The notes below the pieces were generated by a model. The model had not been told where the DNA came from, did not search any database, and saw only the letters and a program-made list of their open reading frames with translations. A program made the position numbers and the translations under genes. 64,000 bases of DNA from a virus. The stretch covers positions 35,860 through 99,859 of the IMG/VR virus record IMGVR_UViG_3300046314_000558. One strand, given 5' to 3'. This document shows positions 7,449-61,381 of the stretch, one piece after another (within the stretch, counting starts at the first letter, position 1; the number at the start of each line of letters is the position of its first letter).

Positions 7449-7477
7449 TTGCAGTAGCTTCGCTATTATGCTATAAT
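7449..7477 (+). promoter_or_regulatory. sigma70-type promoter (extended -10)
   Basis: TTGCAG-17 bp-TATAAT with TGn extension. Confidence 0.8.
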
Positions 7478-13736: not shown

Positions 13737-15704
13737 ATGAACTTACCATCAACACGAGCACAGGTAATTACACGTCGTACCTATAATCGCCCTACTAGCG
13801 ACGACGGAAAAGAGTTTGAAACATGGCAAGAAACAGTTGCCAGAGTTATTGACCACCAAGAGTGGTTGTGGGCACGAGCAGTTGGTCGCGATTTAAATGA
13901 CCTGGAATACGCGGAGCTTTATGATCTTGAGCAACTGATGCTAGATCGCAAGGTGCTAATGAGTGGTCGTACACTTTGGTTGGGCGGCACTAACGTAGCT
14001 AAAACACGTGAAGCGTCTCAATTTAACTGTAGTTTCACACACGTTGAAACAATCTATGACGTTGTTGACGTCTTATGGTTACTGCTACAAGGTTGTGGCG
14101 TTGGATTTAAGCCAATTGTGGGTACGCTAAACGGCTTTTCAAAGCCAATTAAAAATATTCGAGTAGTACGTAGTACTCGTACTACCAAGGGTGGTAATGA
14201 GCACAATACAGAAACATTTGACGCAGAAACTAAAACTTGGACTATTCAGGTCGGAGACAGTGCAGAAGCTTGGGCAAAGTCTGTTGGTAAGCTGCTTGCG
14301 GGTAAGTACCCTGCTGATACTCTTGTACTTGATTTTAGTCAATTACGACCTGCTGGTGAAAGGTTAAAAGGTTATGGCTGGATTTCTTCAGGTGATGCTG
14401 CAATTAGTACTGCTTATACTGCTATCGCCAATATTCTTAATGGTCGTGCTGATAGTCTACTCACTCGGATGGATATTCTGGACATTGTTAACCATCTTGG
14501 TACTATTCTATCCAGTCGTCGCAGTGCTGAAATCGCACTTTTCGATTACGGTCAACCGGAGTGGGAAGAGTTTGCTGTAGCCAAGAAAGACTGGTGGTTG
14601 CATAACAATGCACACCGCACACAGTCAAACAACAGTTTAGTATTTAAAGAAAAACCGCTTAAGTCTGATCTAGAGAAAATCTTTGGCATGATGATTGAAG
14701 CTGGCGGTAGTGAACCAGGATTTATCAATGAAGTCGAAGCCCTCAGACGTGCTCCTTGGTTTAAGGGAGCCAATCCATGCGTTGAAATCTTACTCGGTAA
14801 TAAGGCTTTCTGTAACCTTACCGAAACTGACATTGCCAAGTTCAAAGGCGACACAGCTGGATTACACAACGCTATACGACTGGCAGCTCGTGCCAACTAC
14901 AGACAAACGTGTGTTAACCTTCAGGACGGCATACTTCAAGAGTCTTGGCACCTTAACAACTATTTCTTACGACTTTGCGGTGTAGGCCTAACCGGTATCG
15001 CAATGCGTCCAGATATGGGAAGCTATGACTACGAATACTTGAAGCGTACTGCTACTAGTGCTGCTGTTGGTATGAGTCAAGAACTTGGACTGCCTGCTCC
15101 TAAAAATGTAACTTGTATTAAGCCGTCAGGTACACTGAGCAAAATCATGGATACTACCGAAGGCGTACACAAACCACTAGGAAAGTATATTTTCAACAAT
15201 GTACAATTTAGCAAACATGACCCGGTGGTTGAGAAACTACGTGAAGCGAATTACCGTGTTATTAATCATCCTGTTGATGATTCTGGAGTGCTTGTTACGT
15301 TTCCGGTAATGTGGGACGGAGTTCCGTTTGATAAAGTTGATGGTAAAGAAGTTAACATTGAGTCAGCTATTATTCAACTAGAGCGTTACAAGTTGTTGCA
15401 GACTAGCTGGAATCAACAAAATACGTCGGTAACTATCAGTTACGATCCAACCGAAGTACCTGGAATCATTGATTGGTTGCTAGATAACTGGGATTGTTAT
15501 GTTGGCGTGAGTTTTATCTACCGCACAGATCCAACTAAAACTGCCAAAGACTTGGGTTATTTGTACCTTCCACAAGAAGTAACCACAGAGCATGACTACC
15601 ATGAGTATGTTAAAACCCTAAGCCCTGTTGATCTTAATAACACCAACAGTTTTGATGAAATCACCGATGCCGAATGTGCAACTGGTGCTTGCCCAATTAA
15701 ATAA
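13737..15704 (+). CDS. nrdJ: class II adenosylcobalamin-dependent ribonucleotide reductase (monomeric RTPR type)
   Basis: RRTYNR, GRTLWLGG, FNC, GANPCVEI, CNLTE, TCIKPSGTLS and C-terminal ECATGACPIK; no beta subunit gene. Confidence 0.9.
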   Translation: MNLPSTRAQVITRRTYNRPTSDDGKEFETWQETVARVIDHQEWLWARAVGRDLNDLEYAELYDLEQLMLDRKVLMSGRTLWLGGTNVAKTREASQFNCSFTHVETIYDVVDVLWLLLQGCGVGFKPIVGTLNGFSKPIKNIRVVRSTRTTKGGNEHNTETFDAETKTWTIQVGDSAEAWAKSVGKLLAGKYPADTLVLDFSQLRPAGERLKGYGWISSGDAAISTAYTAIANILNGRADSLLTRMDILDIVNHLGTILSSRRSAEIALFDYGQPEWEEFAVAKKDWWLHNNAHRTQSNNSLVFKEKPLKSDLEKIFGMMIEAGGSEPGFINEVEALRRAPWFKGANPCVEILLGNKAFCNLTETDIAKFKGDTAGLHNAIRLAARANYRQTCVNLQDGILQESWHLNNYFLRLCGVGLTGIAMRPDMGSYDYEYLKRTATSAAVGMSQELGLPAPKNVTCIKPSGTLSKIMDTTEGVHKPLGKYIFNNVQFSKHDPVVEKLREANYRVINHPVDDSGVLVTFPVMWDGVPFDKVDGKEVNIESAIIQLERYKLLQTSWNQQNTSVTISYDPTEVPGIIDWLLDNWDCYVGVSFIYRTDPTKTAKDLGYLYLPQEVTTEHDYHEYVKTLSPVDLNNTNSFDEITDAECATGACPIK

Positions 15705-15706
15705 TT

Positions 15707-15868
15707 ATGATCTCAAACAACACTGAACTAACCTTTAAAGTTAGTATTGAAGAAGCTAATCACATTTTAGCGGGCTTACAAGAGTTGCCTGCTAAAATCT
15801 GTAATCCGCTGTCGGTAAAACTACAAGCTCAAGCAAAAGAACAATTGCCTGAGCCAGCAGCAGAATAA
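15707..15868 (+). CDS. small hypothetical protein (53 aa, missing from ORF track)
   Basis: MISNNTELTFKVSIEEANHILAGLQELPAKICNPLSVKLQAQAKEQLPEPAAE*; fills the gap between nrdJ and the terminator. Confidence 0.7.
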   Translation: MISNNTELTFKVSIEEANHILAGLQELPAKICNPLSVKLQAQAKEQLPEPAAE

Positions 15869-15878
15869 TCAGCCAAAC

Positions 15879-15915
15879 AAAAAGCCCCCGCGTTGCAAAA
15901 CTCGGGGGCTTTTTT
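15879..15915 (+). terminator. terminator ending the replication block (bidirectional form)
   Basis: AAAAAGCCCCCG-loop-CGGGGGCTTTTTT. Confidence 0.88.
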
Positions 15916-16017
15916 GTCGTCAAAATTTCGTAGGGTGCGCCAATGCACTTGCCCAAAAATATCCTGCATAATTTCTTATTACCGTGCATTTTTGCTCCTG
16001 GAACCCTAAAAGTTGGG

Positions 16018-16046
16018 TTGCAGTACATACCATTTTGTTGTATAAT
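16018..16046 (+). promoter_or_regulatory. sigma70-type promoter of the 16-18 kb cassette
   Basis: TTGCAG-17 bp-TATAAT. Confidence 0.8.
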
Positions 16047-16124
16047 TATATCAGTTCTTAAATTTTTAGGAACTGCGCGGTGATACGCAGTATCAAATCT
16101 AACCACAAACGAAAGATATATTGT

Positions 16125-17045
16125 ATGGTTGATACAACGACTAGCGTACCAGTTTCTTCGGAAGCAACTGAAGAAGCAATGGATGCGCTTAAAAAACAAG
16201 CTAGTTTTGCTGAAGATTATTATAAGCAACTGGCATCTCAAGTTAAAGAAACCTTAAAGGAAAATAAAATGGCAGAAATTATGACACCAAGTATGATTAT
16301 GGGTGGCGGCGGAGACGGTGGTCTTGGCTTTGGTAGTGGCGGCGGCCTTATTGGCGGTCTTATCTTAGGTAGTTTACTACGTAATGGTAATGGCGGTTTA
16401 TTTGGCGGTGAAGGTAACGGTGCAGCTCTAGGCGCAACGCTACGTAACCCACCAGAACAAAATCAAGCTAACATGGACTTAATGGCAGCTATTGGTGCAG
16501 TTGATAAAGCAACAGCAGTAAGCACAGCAGCTATGGAAGCCTCACAAGCTACACAAACTCTAGGTATTACAACTCAACTAAACAACGTAGCCAGCTCTCT
16601 AGCTGCTCGTACAGACAACCTAAAAGATATTGTTAATACAAATGCAGTAGCTTTAATGCAAGGTCAAGCTGCTATTCAGCAAAACATCATGGAAAACCGT
16701 TATGAACTATCTAAAGATATTTCTAGCGACGGTGAAAAGACACGTGCACTAATTACACAACAGTACGAGCTAAATCTACAGCGTCAACTAGCTGATGCAA
16801 ACGCAGCAATTATCGAACTACGTAGTCGTGAATACAGTGGCGCAGCAGCTCGCGGTGTTGAAGTTACTACAACAAACAACATCAACCAGATGCAACAACA
16901 ACAGCAACAACAAGCTCAGTACGGTCAATTGGCCAATCTGATCTGGAGCTTAGGTCAAAGCATTCGCAGCGAAAACGCAGCAATCAACGTTGGTAGCGGT
17001 ACACAAACTGCTAACCCAAGCAACACAAATACTAACATTCGTTAA
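16125..17045 (+). CDS. Gly-rich hydrophobic / coiled-coil / QN-rich protein of unknown function (alternative in-frame start 16269)
   Basis: GGGLIGGLILGSLL segment, heptad region (DGEKTRALITQQYELNLQRQL), polyQ and N/T-rich C-terminus; ATG 16269 has an AAGGA RBS. Confidence 0.8.
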   Translation: MVDTTTSVPVSSEATEEAMDALKKQASFAEDYYKQLASQVKETLKENKMAEIMTPSMIMGGGGDGGLGFGSGGGLIGGLILGSLLRNGNGGLFGGEGNGAALGATLRNPPEQNQANMDLMAAIGAVDKATAVSTAAMEASQATQTLGITTQLNNVASSLAARTDNLKDIVNTNAVALMQGQAAIQQNIMENRYELSKDISSDGEKTRALITQQYELNLQRQLADANAAIIELRSREYSGAAARGVEVTTTNNINQMQQQQQQQAQYGQLANLIWSLGQSIRSENAAINVGSGTQTANPSNTNTNIR

Positions 17046-17058
17046 TATTTAGGTTACT

Positions 17059-17092
17059 AAGCCCCCAAGACCACAAGTCGTGGGGGCTTTTT
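17059..17092 (+). terminator. Rho-independent terminator inside the cassette
   Basis: AAGCCCCCA-loop-TGGGGGCTTTTT. Confidence 0.8.
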
Positions 17093-17106
17093 AATTGGAG
17101 AGTATA

Positions 17107-17694
17107 ATGCAACAACAATTTATGCCGTTTGGTTGGCCTATGCCAGCCTACTTACCACTACCACCTATAATAGAAGACAATGATTTATTTATAAACAGTG
17201 TAGTTAATGGTAGTTCAACACCAGGGCCTCAAGGCGAACCAGGGCCACAAGGCGAACCAGGGCCACAAGGCGAAGCTGGTGTTAGTGTAGTTAGTGCAGA
17301 AGTATCACCAAATCCCGGTGACCTAATGCTAACACTCAGCAACGGTGAAATAATAAATGCTGGCAGTGTAATAGGGCCTGAGGGACCACCTGGACCAAGT
17401 GAAAGTTGTGGTTGCAATACTACAACTATTACAGAAGACTACTACGCCACTGAAAAGGATTGCTATATTGGGGCGCAACTAAAAGATAAGGCAAGTGTTA
17501 TGCTACCTAGTAACGTAAAGCCTGGTACTAAATACTCTATAAAACTAGAATTTGGTGCCCCTGTAGGCAACAGGAAACTAACAATACAACCAGAATCGCC
17601 AGCGCTAATAAACGGAGTTACGGCAATTACGATGACTACTCCTTATGAGAGTATTAATGTAATTTTTAATAATGGCAATTGGTGGACTATATAA
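17107..17694 (+). CDS. collagen-repeat protein with C-terminal beta-rich domain
   Basis: GPQGEP repeats, GPEGPPGP, CGC and C-terminal FNNGNWWTI; GGAG RBS before ATG 17107. Confidence 0.75.
   Translation: MQQQFMPFGWPMPAYLPLPPIIEDNDLFINSVVNGSSTPGPQGEPGPQGEPGPQGEAGVSVVSAEVSPNPGDLMLTLSNGEIINAGSVIGPEGPPGPSESCGCNTTTITEDYYATEKDCYIGAQLKDKASVMLPSNVKPGTKYSIKLEFGAPVGNRKLTIQPESPALINGVTAITMTTPYESINVIFNNGNWWTI
17221..17274 (+). repeat. 3 x 18-bp tandem repeat encoding PGPQGE
   Basis: CCAGGGCC(T/A)CAAGGCGAA x3. Confidence 0.9.
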
Positions 17695-17702
17695 GGAATA
17701 AA

Positions 17703-18140
17703 ATGGAAGAACTAAAACTGGCGCTTAAACGCGCTTTTGCAACAACTTATGCGTTCTTGGTGAAATCAGAAAACTTTCACTGGAACGTAACAGGCCCAAA
17801 CTTTGTGCAACATCACGAACTGTTTGGTAAAATTTATGACGAGGTAGATGATGAGCTGGATGACTTTGCTGAGCGCGTGCGCGCTTTACGTTGCTTTGTG
17901 CCTGCTAGTTTCTCGCAACTTAGTGAAAATTCGCAAATTTTGGATACGCTGGAAATACTACCACCGACCGAAATGGTACGTACACTATACGTTGACAACG
18001 GCAAAGTACACACGGCGCTAATGGAAGCCTATGCACTTGCTGAAACTGAAGGTGAGCACGGACTAAGTGCGTTTTTAAGTGAACGCATTGACGCACACCG
18101 CAAACATGGTTGGATGTTGTATTCAACAATGCAACCATAA
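17703..18140 (+). CDS. dps: Dps / mini-ferritin
   Basis: FHWNVTGPNFVQHHELF...DDFAER ferroxidase signature and HRKHGWML; AAGGA RBS before ATG 17703. Confidence 0.92.
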   Translation: MEELKLALKRAFATTYAFLVKSENFHWNVTGPNFVQHHELFGKIYDEVDDELDDFAERVRALRCFVPASFSQLSENSQILDTLEILPPTEMVRTLYVDNGKVHTALMEAYALAETEGEHGLSAFLSERIDAHRKHGWMLYSTMQP

Positions 18141-18141
18141 C

Positions 18142-18180
18142 AAAAAGCCCCGCACTATTGCTAGTGCGGGGCTTTTCTTT
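18142..18180. terminator. bidirectional terminator where + and - transcription converge
   Basis: AAAAAGCCCCGCACTA-loop-TAGTGCGGGGCTTTTCTTT. Confidence 0.9.
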
Positions 18181-18560
18181 TAACCGTCAGATGAGGATAA
18201 GAACAGTGCTGCAAATTCCAGTGCTTTGGCGTCGTCACGTTCTCGCATGATTTGATCACGCTTTTCACGACTCCAACTGAATCCACCGTCACCGCCCCAC
18301 AAATCCCAAGCTACTCGGCCTTTGCTTGGAAAACCTTCTTCGCCGCTGTTGAATCCAGTAGCTTTTTTATCTACTTCGTGGCGACTGAAAAAGCTGTACA
18401 TGCGTAGTACGGTTGTGCCGGTTAGCGGGTCTCGATCCTTTAGCTGATTAGCACGTGCAAGTCCAACTAGTGTACCTCCTGGCTTACCTTCGTCTTTCCA
18501 TTTTAATGCACGTTTGGCAGCGCTTGCCATACCTTCTGTGGGTTTATATGTTTCTGCCAT
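18180..18560 (-). CDS. conserved phage hypothetical protein
   Basis: 126 aa with GGTLVGLARA, RMYSFFSRHE and AWDLWGGD motifs; GAGG RBS. Confidence 0.7.
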   Translation of the reverse strand: MAETYKPTEGMASAAKRALKWKDEGKPGGTLVGLARANQLKDRDPLTGTTVLRMYSFFSRHEVDKKATGFNSGEEGFPSKGRVAWDLWGGDGGFSWSREKRDQIMRERDDAKALEFAALFLSSSDG

Positions 18561-24060: not shown

Positions 24061-24684
24061 TTACGCTCCTAGTACGTGTAGTGCATGTTGGTAATGCTTA
24101 ATGCGATCTTCTAAGCCAATAGTACCGCCATTAATGCGTTTTGTTAATGTAAGAATATCACCAGCGTCTGCCCACTGATTAAGTTTATTAGTTTCCCAAA
24201 ACCAACAAGCACTTTGAGCCGCACCTTCAAATGTTTCCAAGTATTCAGCAGCTTCTTCAACACCGATACCTAAGCTAGCAGCAAACCAAGTGTAGTTGTC
24301 TTTGCCAGTTAGCTGAATAAGACCCTTGCCACTATAACGATAGCCGTCGCCAGATTCTACCGGCCCGTTGCCCATGCGGTTGGCATACACAAGGTTGGCA
24401 ATTGCTTGCTGCTTGTTTGGCATCGCTGCATACTGCTGTGCCAACTCATCTGTGGGAAAGTACTTGGGAAATATCTTGCGTAGTGTAACTGCACGATAAT
24501 TTAAGTTTTCACGCAGTGCTGTAAAGCCGCCTGACTCGTGCGCACACTGTGCAACAAAAGCTGCAATGCGTTGTGGCGTATTGATTTTGTAGTCTGGTAA
24601 CAGCTGAGCTAGTGCCACATGCCATTGCTTAACATATGGATTACGAGGAATCAGCTGTTGTAGCTGTTCGAGAGTTAAATTCAT
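24061..24684 (-). CDS. endolysin, glycoside hydrolase family 19
   Basis: AAFVAQCAHESGG, ENLNY, YANRMGNG, GKGLIQLTGKDNY, TKRINGGTIGLEDR. Confidence 0.93.
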   Translation of the reverse strand: MNLTLEQLQQLIPRNPYVKQWHVALAQLLPDYKINTPQRIAAFVAQCAHESGGFTALRENLNYRAVTLRKIFPKYFPTDELAQQYAAMPNKQQAIANLVYANRMGNGPVESGDGYRYSGKGLIQLTGKDNYTWFAASLGIGVEEAAEYLETFEGAAQSACWFWETNKLNQWADAGDILTLTKRINGGTIGLEDRIKHYQHALHVLGA

Positions 24685-61352: not shown

Positions 61353-61381
61353 ATTATACCTGGTTAGCACAAAAATGTCAA
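61353..61381 (-). promoter_or_regulatory. consensus sigma70 promoter for the head-tail operon
   Basis: TTGACA-17 bp-TATAAT on the - strand. Confidence 0.85.

Follow-up and report, generated by a model that had tools for sequence, protein, structure and literature searches.

The window analysed here, a 64-kb stretch of DNA from an uncultured freshwater T5-like phage, carries on its plus strand a separately transcribed unit of three genes, g1, g2 and a Dps gene (g3), which is flanked by two strong terminators and preceded by a conserved promoter and a structured leader (Table 1). The genes for terminase, portal, major tail protein, tape measure, tail fibres and endolysin are all located on the opposite, minus strand, and the plus strand is shared with an SbcC-like nuclease and a ribonucleotide reductase (RNR). 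The preliminary description of this DNA, according to which the cassette stands alone with its own promoter on the strand opposite the structural genes, is thus borne out, the promoter being a candidate. A second copy of g1 or g2 is absent from the window, and a second g2 is absent from the whole 99.9-kb genome.

Table 1. Features of the cassette and its borders, in window coordinates
Feature	Position	Strand	Details
Upstream intrinsic terminator, end of early (RNR) operon	15879-15915	+	-23.8 kcal/mol, z -5.9
Conserved non-coding stretch 5' of promoter	15920-16017	+	about 100 nt, near-identical in 7 close relatives
Sigma-70-type promoter candidate	16018-16046	+	TTGCAG-17-TATAAT, read from sequence; -10 at 16041-16046
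Structured 5' leader	16052-16095	+	hairpin 1 (16052-16075), hairpin 2 (16081-16095); consensus and single-sequence fold
g1	16125-17045	+	306 aa ORF
g1 short isoform (candidate)	16269-17045	+	258 aa; in-frame ATG at 16269, AAGGA 7 nt upstream
Internal terminator/attenuator between g1 and g2	17059-17092	+	-20.4 kcal/mol, z -5.0, U5 tract
g2	17107-17694	+	195 aa ORF
g3, Dps mini-ferritin	17703-18140	+	145 aa; start 8 nt past g2 stop
Terminator common to cassette and convergent late-strand genes	18143-18181	bidirectional	-26.5 kcal/mol, 15-bp stem (RNA fold)
Convergent neighbour gene	18180-18560	-	126 aa, phrog_2859, function not assigned

Expression signals of the cassette

None of 200 shuffled sequences folded as well as the hairpins at 15879-15914, 17059-17089 and 18143-18176. 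The upstream hairpin is kept in relatives despite altered stem sequences, and the symmetry of its A- and U-tracts makes it potentially bidirectional. A pattern scan counted 16 pairs in the downstream terminator, against the 15-bp stem of the RNA fold. Sub-threshold terminator-like matches were all that Rfam returned for the region 15700-18300. The conserved stretch in front of the promoter has no further copy in the window. The -10 element of the promoter is unchanged in nine of ten aligned relatives, L031 being the exception, and in two relatives the -35 element reads TTGACC. The early strand has the same TTGCAG-17-TATAAT arrangement at 7472, whereas the late-strand promoters are perfect TTGACA-17-TATAAT. 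According to a paper on T5 transcription, early promoters of T5 carry an ATATT discriminator, by which the g1 promoter of so distant a T5 relative is not to be classed.

Host sigma-70 polymerase would initiate at about 16053. In the consensus fold, hairpin 1 of the leader retains three pairs via double changes, and hairpin 2 is invariant in sequence among relatives. In 14 loci drawn from diverse phage backgrounds, nine of the ten stem pairs of the internal terminator are preserved through compensatory double changes. Because a stable hairpin leader lies at the 5' end and a strong hairpin past g1, the predicted major product is g1, with g2 and Dps presumably carried by read-through transcripts only; the earlier expectation of an abundant g1 and minor g2 and g3 fits this covarying terminator.

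Proteins encoded by the cassette

The g1 protein comprises an N-terminal helix (residues 12-51), a Gly-rich uncharged segment at about 65-85 (GGGLIGGLILGSLL), a second helix (112-282) containing a polyQ tract (255-263), and a conserved disordered Asn/Thr tail (283-306). The Gly-rich segment, the polyQ tract and the Asn-rich tail are as first described. AlphaFold2 models residues 112-282 as a single helix of ~170 residues with pLDDT >90, so that of the long coiled coil proposed before, the long helix stands and the canonical heptad does not: the hydrophobic period of the family is 3.66 over 112-282 and 3.6 over 160-200, not 3.5, and the single g1 sequence has no dominant peak at 3.5. The N-terminal helix alone has a period of 3.54. 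The Gly-rich segment spans ~20 uncharged residues (median 20 among 25 family members that allowed its limits to be set), and its best 19-residue Kyte-Doolittle value, 1.57 (family median 1.52), compares with the usual membrane threshold of 1.6. About 40 long-form homologues conserve the internal ATG and its Shine-Dalgarno sequence, the second start is exactly where short-form homologues begin, and g1 may be made in two forms of 306 and 258 aa. Searches with hmmsearch and hhalign found no homology between the N-terminal extension of long g1 and an 85-aa protein whose gene precedes short g1.

The collagen repeats, CGC motif and terminal beta domain previously ascribed to g2 are all present. A conserved Gln/Pro leader (residues 1-33) is followed by six GXY triplets (40-57), a small beta-hairpin unit (59-88), the sequence GPEGPPGP, a C101-G-C103 motif and a C-terminal beta domain (104-195) modelled with pLDDT >95. 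With six contiguous triplets plus GPEGPPGP, g2 scores 18.1 bits against PF01391, below the cut-off of 27.2, and its collagen matches are sub-threshold in NCBIfam as well as in Pfam; homologues with up to ~25 triplets exceed the Pfam cut-off. By Foldseek comparison of the predicted model, the C-terminal domain has the T4 gp9/gp10 fold, as found in CBA120 TSP4 (residues 1-335, E 6e-6). Matches of probability 1.0 were obtained to 7rfo/7rej (E 6e-6 to 1e-4), 1qex and 5iv5, with T4 gp9 (1qex) at E 2.6e-3 and rmsd 2.9 over 76 columns and T4 gp10 matching weakly (E 0.26); an Acinetobacter phage tailspike and the Pa223 capsid spike were also recovered. In BFVD the domain gave 487 matches at E <= 1e-3, with tail-fibre, tailspike and gp9/gp10 proteins numbering in the hundreds.

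At the level of sequence, a Pfam profile search found no PF07880 match in g2 itself, and its weak matches to tail PHROGs are driven by collagen. Paralogues downstream of g2 at other loci match baseplate/tail-fibre PHROGs and PF07880 weakly (E 1e-3 to 1e-5), the PF07880 match (E 1.3e-3) lying under the curated Pfam cut-off. The g2 leader is 64-88% identical among relatives and the remainder of the protein is swapped, as expected of a docking end; in L011, L017 and L043 an extra inserted domain separates the collagen from the terminal domain. Neither g2 nor its paralogues carry an export signal. Prediction of a complex of three copies each of g1 (50-306) and g2 (1-60) scored 0.00, which bears on binding neither way.

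The identification of gene 3 as Dps holds. It matches PF00210 over residues 7-142 (E 3e-17, 63.3 bits, cut-off 24.5), phrog_3636 (E 1e-29) and, by phmmer, 8ff9 over residues 7-143 (E 4.6e-19), and it aligns full-length to the Dps structures 8ff9 and 1n1q. Since the NCBIfam Dps equivalogs match only below their cut-offs, g3 is a divergent member of the family. The His residues of FHWNV and HHELF and the D and E of DDFAER are kept, four residues which we take to be the inter-subunit ferroxidase ligands of Dps structures. E. coli Dps binds DNA via a Lys-rich N-terminal tail, which marks the DNA-binding subgroup rather than the Dps family. Such a tail is absent from g3, where about six residues precede helix A (query residue 7 against chain residue 18 of 8ff9). 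Thus, g3 resembles the Dps mini-ferritins in its full-length four-helix-bundle match and its ferroxidase ligands, and differs from them in being phage-encoded, in its very short N-terminus and, among its relatives, in a fusion to a phage domain of unassigned function.

Linkage and distribution among phages

A g2-type gene follows g1 in 58 of 61 relatives with distinct g1 proteins (>=55% identical), and in 52 of these 58 it carries the g2 leader. Dps is encoded in 20 of the 52 close relatives with enough downstream sequence to be scored, and is missing from the other 32. When present, it always lies within the cassette transcription unit, and it recurs in one distant cassette (L097). It precedes g2 in L021, L034, L037 and L076, is duplicated in some relatives, and in L031 (7999-8808, minus strand) its domain is fused in a single ORF with that of the convergent neighbour (phrog_2859). 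Co-occurrence, put forward in the preliminary description as a check on all three genes, is therefore near obligate for g1 and g2 and fails for the trio as a system, Dps being mobile. Judged from gene content, g1 and g2 are the conserved core and Dps is facultative.

The g1-g2 pair occurs in varied backgrounds, including T5-like genomes, large tRNA-bearing phages and positions beside TerL (L026, L033). In L015 its orientation with respect to PhoH is reversed. Related cassettes encode one to four additional small proteins that repeat the gp10-like domain. Among 26 distant g1 loci, only two have g2, and 24 have no collagen or gp10-like neighbour.

The g1 family comprises >2,200 matches in 272 clusters at 50% identity, in line with the widespread uncharacterised phage family to which it had been likened. 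It has no match in Pfam, PHROGs or NCBIfam; its profile gave only noise against PDB sequences (best E 0.2), Foldseek returned no match for the g1 model, and the ESM Atlas contains it in unnamed viral clusters only. A scan for DGEKTRALI in one genome each of 185,579 species found no relative in cellular genomes, and the family is apparently restricted to phages. When g1 and three other family members were compared by tblastn with 50,697 phage records, matches were limited to At2, PhiPLPE, KLER1-1 and Dickeya phage Sucellus, the last over a stretch of 33 residues. No T5 record was matched, and g2 matched nothing in the phage-record searches and was found in no cultured phage, which agrees with the earlier statement that such a module is missing from T5. 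Only g1 is present in the three cultured carriers, Acinetobacter phage At2, Iodobacter phage PhiPLPE and Pararheinheimera phage KLER1-1.

Distant g1 genes lie directly 3' of genes for tail proteins of 1350-1730 aa in At2, L089, L090, L092 and L104, and within the structural region in PhiPLPE. The PhiPLPE record lists three other proteins as confirmed by mass spectrometry (MS), not gp38, at small MS coverage, and the phiPLPE-group paper does not mention gp38. For KLER1-1, where gp74 sits among replication genes, nothing was found in the literature.

Possible functions of the cassette

Tentatively, and with somewhat less than even confidence, we read the cassette as a portable accessory fibre module. 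We infer the oligomeric state of its products, the contact between g1 and g2, and their timing, location and function. In such a module g1 would form a rod ~25 nm long, probably oligomeric, with the Gly-rich hydrophobic segment serving as an anchor at one end and the polyQ/Asn-Thr tail at the other. The g2 protein would trimerise via its short collagen runs, its CxC disulfides may lock the trimer after it leaves the cell, and its Gln/Pro leader would dock on g1 as the constant partner, leaving the gp10-like domain on display. The extra gp10-like proteins of related phages might then act as 'snap-on' fibres. The complex of g1 and g2 would most likely act extracellularly, on the virion or after release at lysis, with a role in adsorption or host recognition. 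Dps would be a facultative passenger rather than a structural partner, handling iron and peroxide during infection.

The proposed fibre has parallels in several known systems. The C-terminal fold of g2 is shared with CBA120 TSP2/TSP4 (7rfo/7rej), T4 gp9 (1qex) and T4 gp10 (2fl8/5iv5), and the repetition of this domain in small neighbouring proteins agrees with the way in which branched tailspike assemblies snap together. The components of these gp10-like complexes differ from g2, which has only 195 aa, stands on a collagen stalk, lacks an enzymatic or receptor-binding head and bears its gp10-like domain at the C-terminus. The cassette is placed apart from the structural operon, with a promoter of its own, and the gp10-like complexes contain no counterpart of g1. 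Trimeric fibres that combine a collagen stalk with a docking leader at the N-terminus include BclA of the Bacillus exosporium, which docks on BxpB/ExsFA, and the PRD1 spike P5. The order of Pro-rich leader, GXY repeats and C-terminal beta domain in g2 is the same, and a minor filament on a more abundant base protein is what we propose for g2 and g1. However, g2 has no sequence match to BclA, its terminal domain is gp10-like rather than TNF/C1q-like, and the base protein g1, unlike BxpB, is a helical rod. In its ~25 nm helical shaft with a distinct anchoring N-terminus, g1 resembles the P22 tail needle gp26, T4 fibritin and reovirus sigma1, the last of which has a hydrophobic N-terminal anchor; it differs from them in lacking any sequence or fold match, in its period of 3.66, and in its Gly-rich greasy segment, polyQ tract and two candidate isoforms.

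Several observations weigh against an accessory fibre. The cassette is on the early strand, with a promoter like that at 7472 and unlike those of the late strand. The cultured carriers contain only g1, distant g1 genes mostly lack g2, gp38 is outside the MS-confirmed proteins of PhiPLPE, and gp74 of KLER1-1 lies among replication genes. The g1 helix has no clear heptad. Movement among siphoviruses, myoviruses and others would need a generic attachment site on differing particles, and the hydrophobic segment and dual-start layout of g1 are equally membrane-anchor-like.

These last features are central to an alternative that we consider unlikely, in which g1 is a membrane-anchored envelope protein and not part of the virion, with holin/antiholin-like regulation between its isoforms. 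The short isoform would insert the Gly-rich segment in the inner membrane, the charged 48-residue extension of the long form would prevent the same, and the 25-nm rod, comparable in length to the width of the periplasm, would span or line the envelope, acting in lysis timing, superinfection exclusion or envelope remodelling; a partner with a Gln/Pro leader (g2 or its analogues) would be recruited to it. The conserved dual in-frame start, the 20-residue median of the uncharged segment and the early-strand type of the promoter are consistent with this proposal, as is the proximity of distant g1 genes to lysis genes. In At2 the g1 gene lies beside an endolysin gene; in other loci, by functions that we assigned by eye, g1 directly follows genes for small membrane proteins and a presumed M15-type endolysin (L053-55), is followed by presumably endolysin-like genes (L091, L098, L104) or stands back-to-back with a putative lysis cassette (L093). 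Functional analogies exist with lambda S105/S107, which likewise have two in-frame starts just upstream of a hydrophobic segment, and with T4 gpT, a large holin with a single transmembrane segment, which combines one N-terminal hydrophobic segment with a large C-terminal domain.

On the other hand, the starts of g1 are 48 codons apart and not 2, its hydropathy is borderline, and it has no match to a holin family, no signal peptide and no positive-inside pattern. The dual-start motif of holins is present, whereas the location within a lysis cassette is not: the endolysin of this phage is already encoded on the other strand at 24061-24684, 6 kb from the cassette. Known holins do not resemble a 306-aa protein that has a strong promoter and a leader with a stabilising role. 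Furthermore, the collagen, CxC and virion-type attachment fold of g2 and its paralogues come without any export signal. It is similarly doubtful that g1 and its Gln/Pro-leader partner constitute a non-virion phage device, a dual-isoform rod in or lining the envelope, or polymerising after lysis, which would recruit snap-on collagen/gp10-domain fibres; lysis timing, phage exclusion and the tethering of progeny or debris are possible roles.

Still less probable, in our estimate, is that g1 is an assembly factor, a chaperone or scaffold made in excess to trimerise and fold the short collagen fibres and absent from the final structure. The predicted excess of g1 over g2, their obligate linkage in the core clade and the very short collagen of six triplets, which probably needs a nucleating partner, would agree with such a role. 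However, most phage fibre chaperones are small proteins whose genes lie 3' of that for the client, 24 of the 26 distant loci offer g1 no collagen or gp10-like client, and the conserved termini and 25-nm rod suggest a structural part. The protective coat, matrix or inclusion first proposed, built of self-assembling g1 with minor g2 filaments and with Dps for DNA and iron, and serving to protect progeny or the infected cell, is very improbable: g1 is the predicted major product, its Gly-rich head, long helical rod and Q/N-rich tail resemble the layout of intermediate filaments, and Dps, where present, keeps to the cassette transcription unit and recurs in L097, but nothing points to a shell, an inclusion or DNA protection. 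The fold of g2 is typical of receptor-binding-protein adaptors and of tailspike/baseplate attachment domains rather than of a coat, and Dps is missing from most close relatives, can be fused to a different gene and lacks the Lys-rich DNA-binding tail.

The expression architecture of the cassette, which combines a promoter and stabilising leader with dual in-frame starts and an attenuating terminator, is unusually well conserved, and its Dps adds a further case of phage-encoded iron handling. If the g1 and g2 products do not reside on the virion, they would represent a new class of phage envelope device. If the accessory fibre module is the correct reading, the cassette would be a plug-in host-recognition module moving among unrelated phage types, with a bearing on the evolution of host range in freshwater phages and on the engineering of modular receptor-binding proteins.

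Genomic setting and expression signals of the cassette

The virus record comprises 99,859 bp and is estimated to be 94% complete, the window being its right-hand 64 kb. Genes of replication and nucleotide metabolism, including those of an SbcC-like nuclease and a class II ribonucleotide reductase, occupy the plus strand up to 15.9 kb, and the minus strand carries PhoH, endolysin, tail fibres, central fibre, tape measure, major tail protein, portal and terminase from 18.2 kb on. The three genes g1 (Gly-rich helical protein), g2 (collagen protein) and g3 (Dps) sit where these blocks converge. The layout put forward in the preliminary description, a self-contained transcription unit between terminators, was confirmed: its ORFs and hairpins were located, and its promoter is a candidate inferred from sequence.

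Features of the cassette and its surroundings in the window
Feature	Position	Strand	Details	Basis
Upstream hairpin	15879-15914		-23.8 kcal/mol	RNA fold vs shuffled sequence
Conserved element	15920-16017		single occurrence in window	comparison of relatives
Promoter candidate	16018-16046	+	TTGCAG-17-TATAAT	inferred from sequence
Leader hairpins	16052-16095		two	comparison of relatives
g1	16125-17045	+	306 aa	ORF
g1/g2 hairpin	17059-17089		-20.4 kcal/mol, then U5	RNA fold vs shuffled sequence
g2	17107-17694	+	195 aa	ORF
g3 (Dps)	17703-18140	+	145 aa	ORF
Downstream hairpin	18143-18176		-26.5 kcal/mol, bidirectional	RNA fold vs shuffled sequence
Convergent neighbour gene	18180-18560	-	126 aa, phrog_2859, no assigned function	

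Shuffled sequence folded much less well than any of the three cassette hairpins. The g1/g2 hairpin was found in 14 loci of differing backgrounds, where double changes preserve 9 of its 10 pairs, and this covariation argues that an excess of g1 is part of the design. Among 10 relatives the upstream terminator keeps its structure with altered sequence, and the -10 hexamer of the promoter candidate is unchanged in all except one (L031). The approximately 100 nt preceding this promoter are nearly unchanged in the closest relatives, though non-coding (the sole ORF is a doubtful one on the minus strand), and could bind a regulator or encode a small RNA. The g1 leader of about 75 nt contains two conserved hairpins, the first of 10 bp with compensatory changes among relatives and the second (GTGATAC-GCA-GTATCA) invariant, which may stabilise the 5' end of the mRNA or act in translational control as an operator. 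The window may furthermore hold two promoter classes: the early-strand (plus) candidates at 7472 and 16041 have in common a weaker TTGCAG -35, and the late-strand (minus) candidates at 61358, 53031, 37147 and 63899 are perfect or near-perfect (three TTGACA-17-TATAAT and one TTGCCA-18-TATAAT), with TGn present in three of the four.

The g1 protein family

No family in Pfam, PHROG or NCBIfam matched g1, and neither a profile search of PDB sequences nor a fold search found a counterpart. More than 2,200 homologues were found in a large protein collection, with matches to 272 representatives of 50%-identity clusters; they come almost throughout from metagenomes, language-model neighbours are viral, and no cellular copy turned up when the genomes of 185,579 species were scanned for a motif. 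The family signature begins with a variable N-terminal extension, a conserved Met and a Gly-rich uncharged segment (GGGxLGGLxLGxLL...GGLFGG), continues through LGDIKA...EAQ.QLA into the nearly invariant DGEKTRALI...LNRQL...ELR, and ends with a polyQ tract followed by RATNQAINIGxGTQxANPTNTNTNVR. Residues 112-282 were predicted by AlphaFold2 as one unbroken helix (pLDDT >90); the coiled coil of the preliminary description was not borne out, as the hydrophobic period of the family is 3.66 rather than 3.5.

The conserved Met is residue 49 in the window (ATG at 16269) and is preceded by AAGGA 7 nt upstream. An internal ATG with a Shine-Dalgarno motif is common to about 40 long-form homologues, 20-26 residues ahead of the Gly-rich core, and short-form homologues start exactly at this Met; hence g1 is likely made both as a 306-aa and as a 258-aa isoform. 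In three loci (L093, L094, L099) the extension, which likewise runs up to the conserved internal Met, is a His/Lys-rich run (e.g., KHKHKHKHKH) and not the acidic helix of the window. The greasy segment is a borderline candidate for a membrane anchor: it comprises 21 residues without charge, and its hydropathy (Kyte-Doolittle, 19 residues) is 1.57, the family median being 1.52.

The collagen protein g2 and its genomic linkage to g1

In the alignment of g2 relatives the Gln/Pro leader (QQQxMPFGWP..LPLPPxIxDxDLFINS) is conserved, and GXY triplets vary in number (6 in the window, up to approximately 25 in others). A small beta-hairpin unit with a CxC pair comes immediately after the collagen in the T5-like clade, and the C-terminus is a beta domain of 95 residues, modelled with pLDDT >95. 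The fold of this domain matches T4 gp9, the Pa223 capsid spike, an Acinetobacter phage tailspike and the N-terminal attachment region of the CBA120 tailspike TSP4; the match to T4 gp10 is weak (E 0.26). Among models of viral proteins it matches tail fibres and tailspikes in the hundreds. In many related cassettes the domain is repeated in 1-4 additional small downstream proteins. That the leader is conserved and the rest of the protein exchanged is what one would expect if the leader serves for docking, and the Cys pair beside the collagen run would presumably be useful only in an oxidising, extracellular setting. Homologues in L011, L017 and L043 contain an additional domain of about 140 residues between collagen and terminal domain, which is absent from g2 of the window.

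Co-occurrence was assessed by profile searches of the ORFs of 109 IMG/VR loci. Where g1 was at least 55% identical to that of the window, the next gene had the g2-type C-terminal domain in 58 of 61 loci and the g2 leader in 52 of 61, and Dps was present in 20 of 52; below 55% identity the corresponding counts were 2/26, 1/26 and 2/23. The g1-g2 pair occurs in T5-like genomes, beside TerL (L026, L033) and in large tRNA-bearing phages; L015 has it in inverted orientation with respect to PhoH. In distant g1 relatives g2 is lacking, but the gene that follows encodes a protein of 113-239 aa whose N-terminus is rich in Gln and Pro; these relatives are often preceded by a 1,400-1,700-aa tail protein, with an endolysin after. 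In six loci (L089, L090, L092, L104, L091 and Acinetobacter phage At2) a giant tail protein of 1,350-1,730 aa and a protein of about 145 aa precede the g1 homologue; after it come a small protein whose N-terminus is Gln/Pro-rich and then, often, an endolysin. As suggested by these gene orders, the tail-protein/endolysin setting is a second, recurrent context of the family. As judged from the sequence comparison, the conserved core consists of g1 and a partner that bears a Gln/Pro leader; in the clade of the window a protein with a collagen stalk and an attachment fold of virion type takes the partner's place.

Dps and the role of the module

The g3 protein aligns over its full length with solved Dps proteins and retains the His, His, Asp and Glu ferroxidase ligands, which identifies it by sequence as a genuine Dps. 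In E. coli Dps a Lys-rich N-terminal tail serves DNA binding; g3 lacks such a tail, thus iron and peroxide handling is a more likely role than DNA coating. Where present, Dps varies in position, behind the last fibre gene or straight after g1 (L021, L034, L037, L076), and is sometimes duplicated on the opposite strand. In L031 (7999-8808, minus strand) the domain encoded by the window's convergent neighbour is fused N-terminally to a complete Dps domain, and L034 and L076 contain ORFs of similar kind on the minus strand. This Rosetta-stone link between predicted proteins ties Dps to the phrog_2859 neighbour rather than to g1/g2.

The cassette features are real and strongly conserved. From sequences and models we tentatively favour a portable accessory fibre cassette; g1 would be the abundant rod or base, g2 a minor adaptor and Dps a facultative passenger. 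A membrane-anchored role of g1 is considered less likely; the early-strand place of the cassette, its early-type promoter candidate, the dual start and greasy segment of g1 and the lysis genes adjoining distant homologues fit such a role just as well. Ranked below both, a role as assembly factor is quite unlikely, and the protective shell or matrix of g1, g2 and Dps initially proposed found no support and is the least probable of all. Read as a fibre cassette, the module would represent a new variant among accessory phage fibre cassettes, built round the uncharacterised g1 family.
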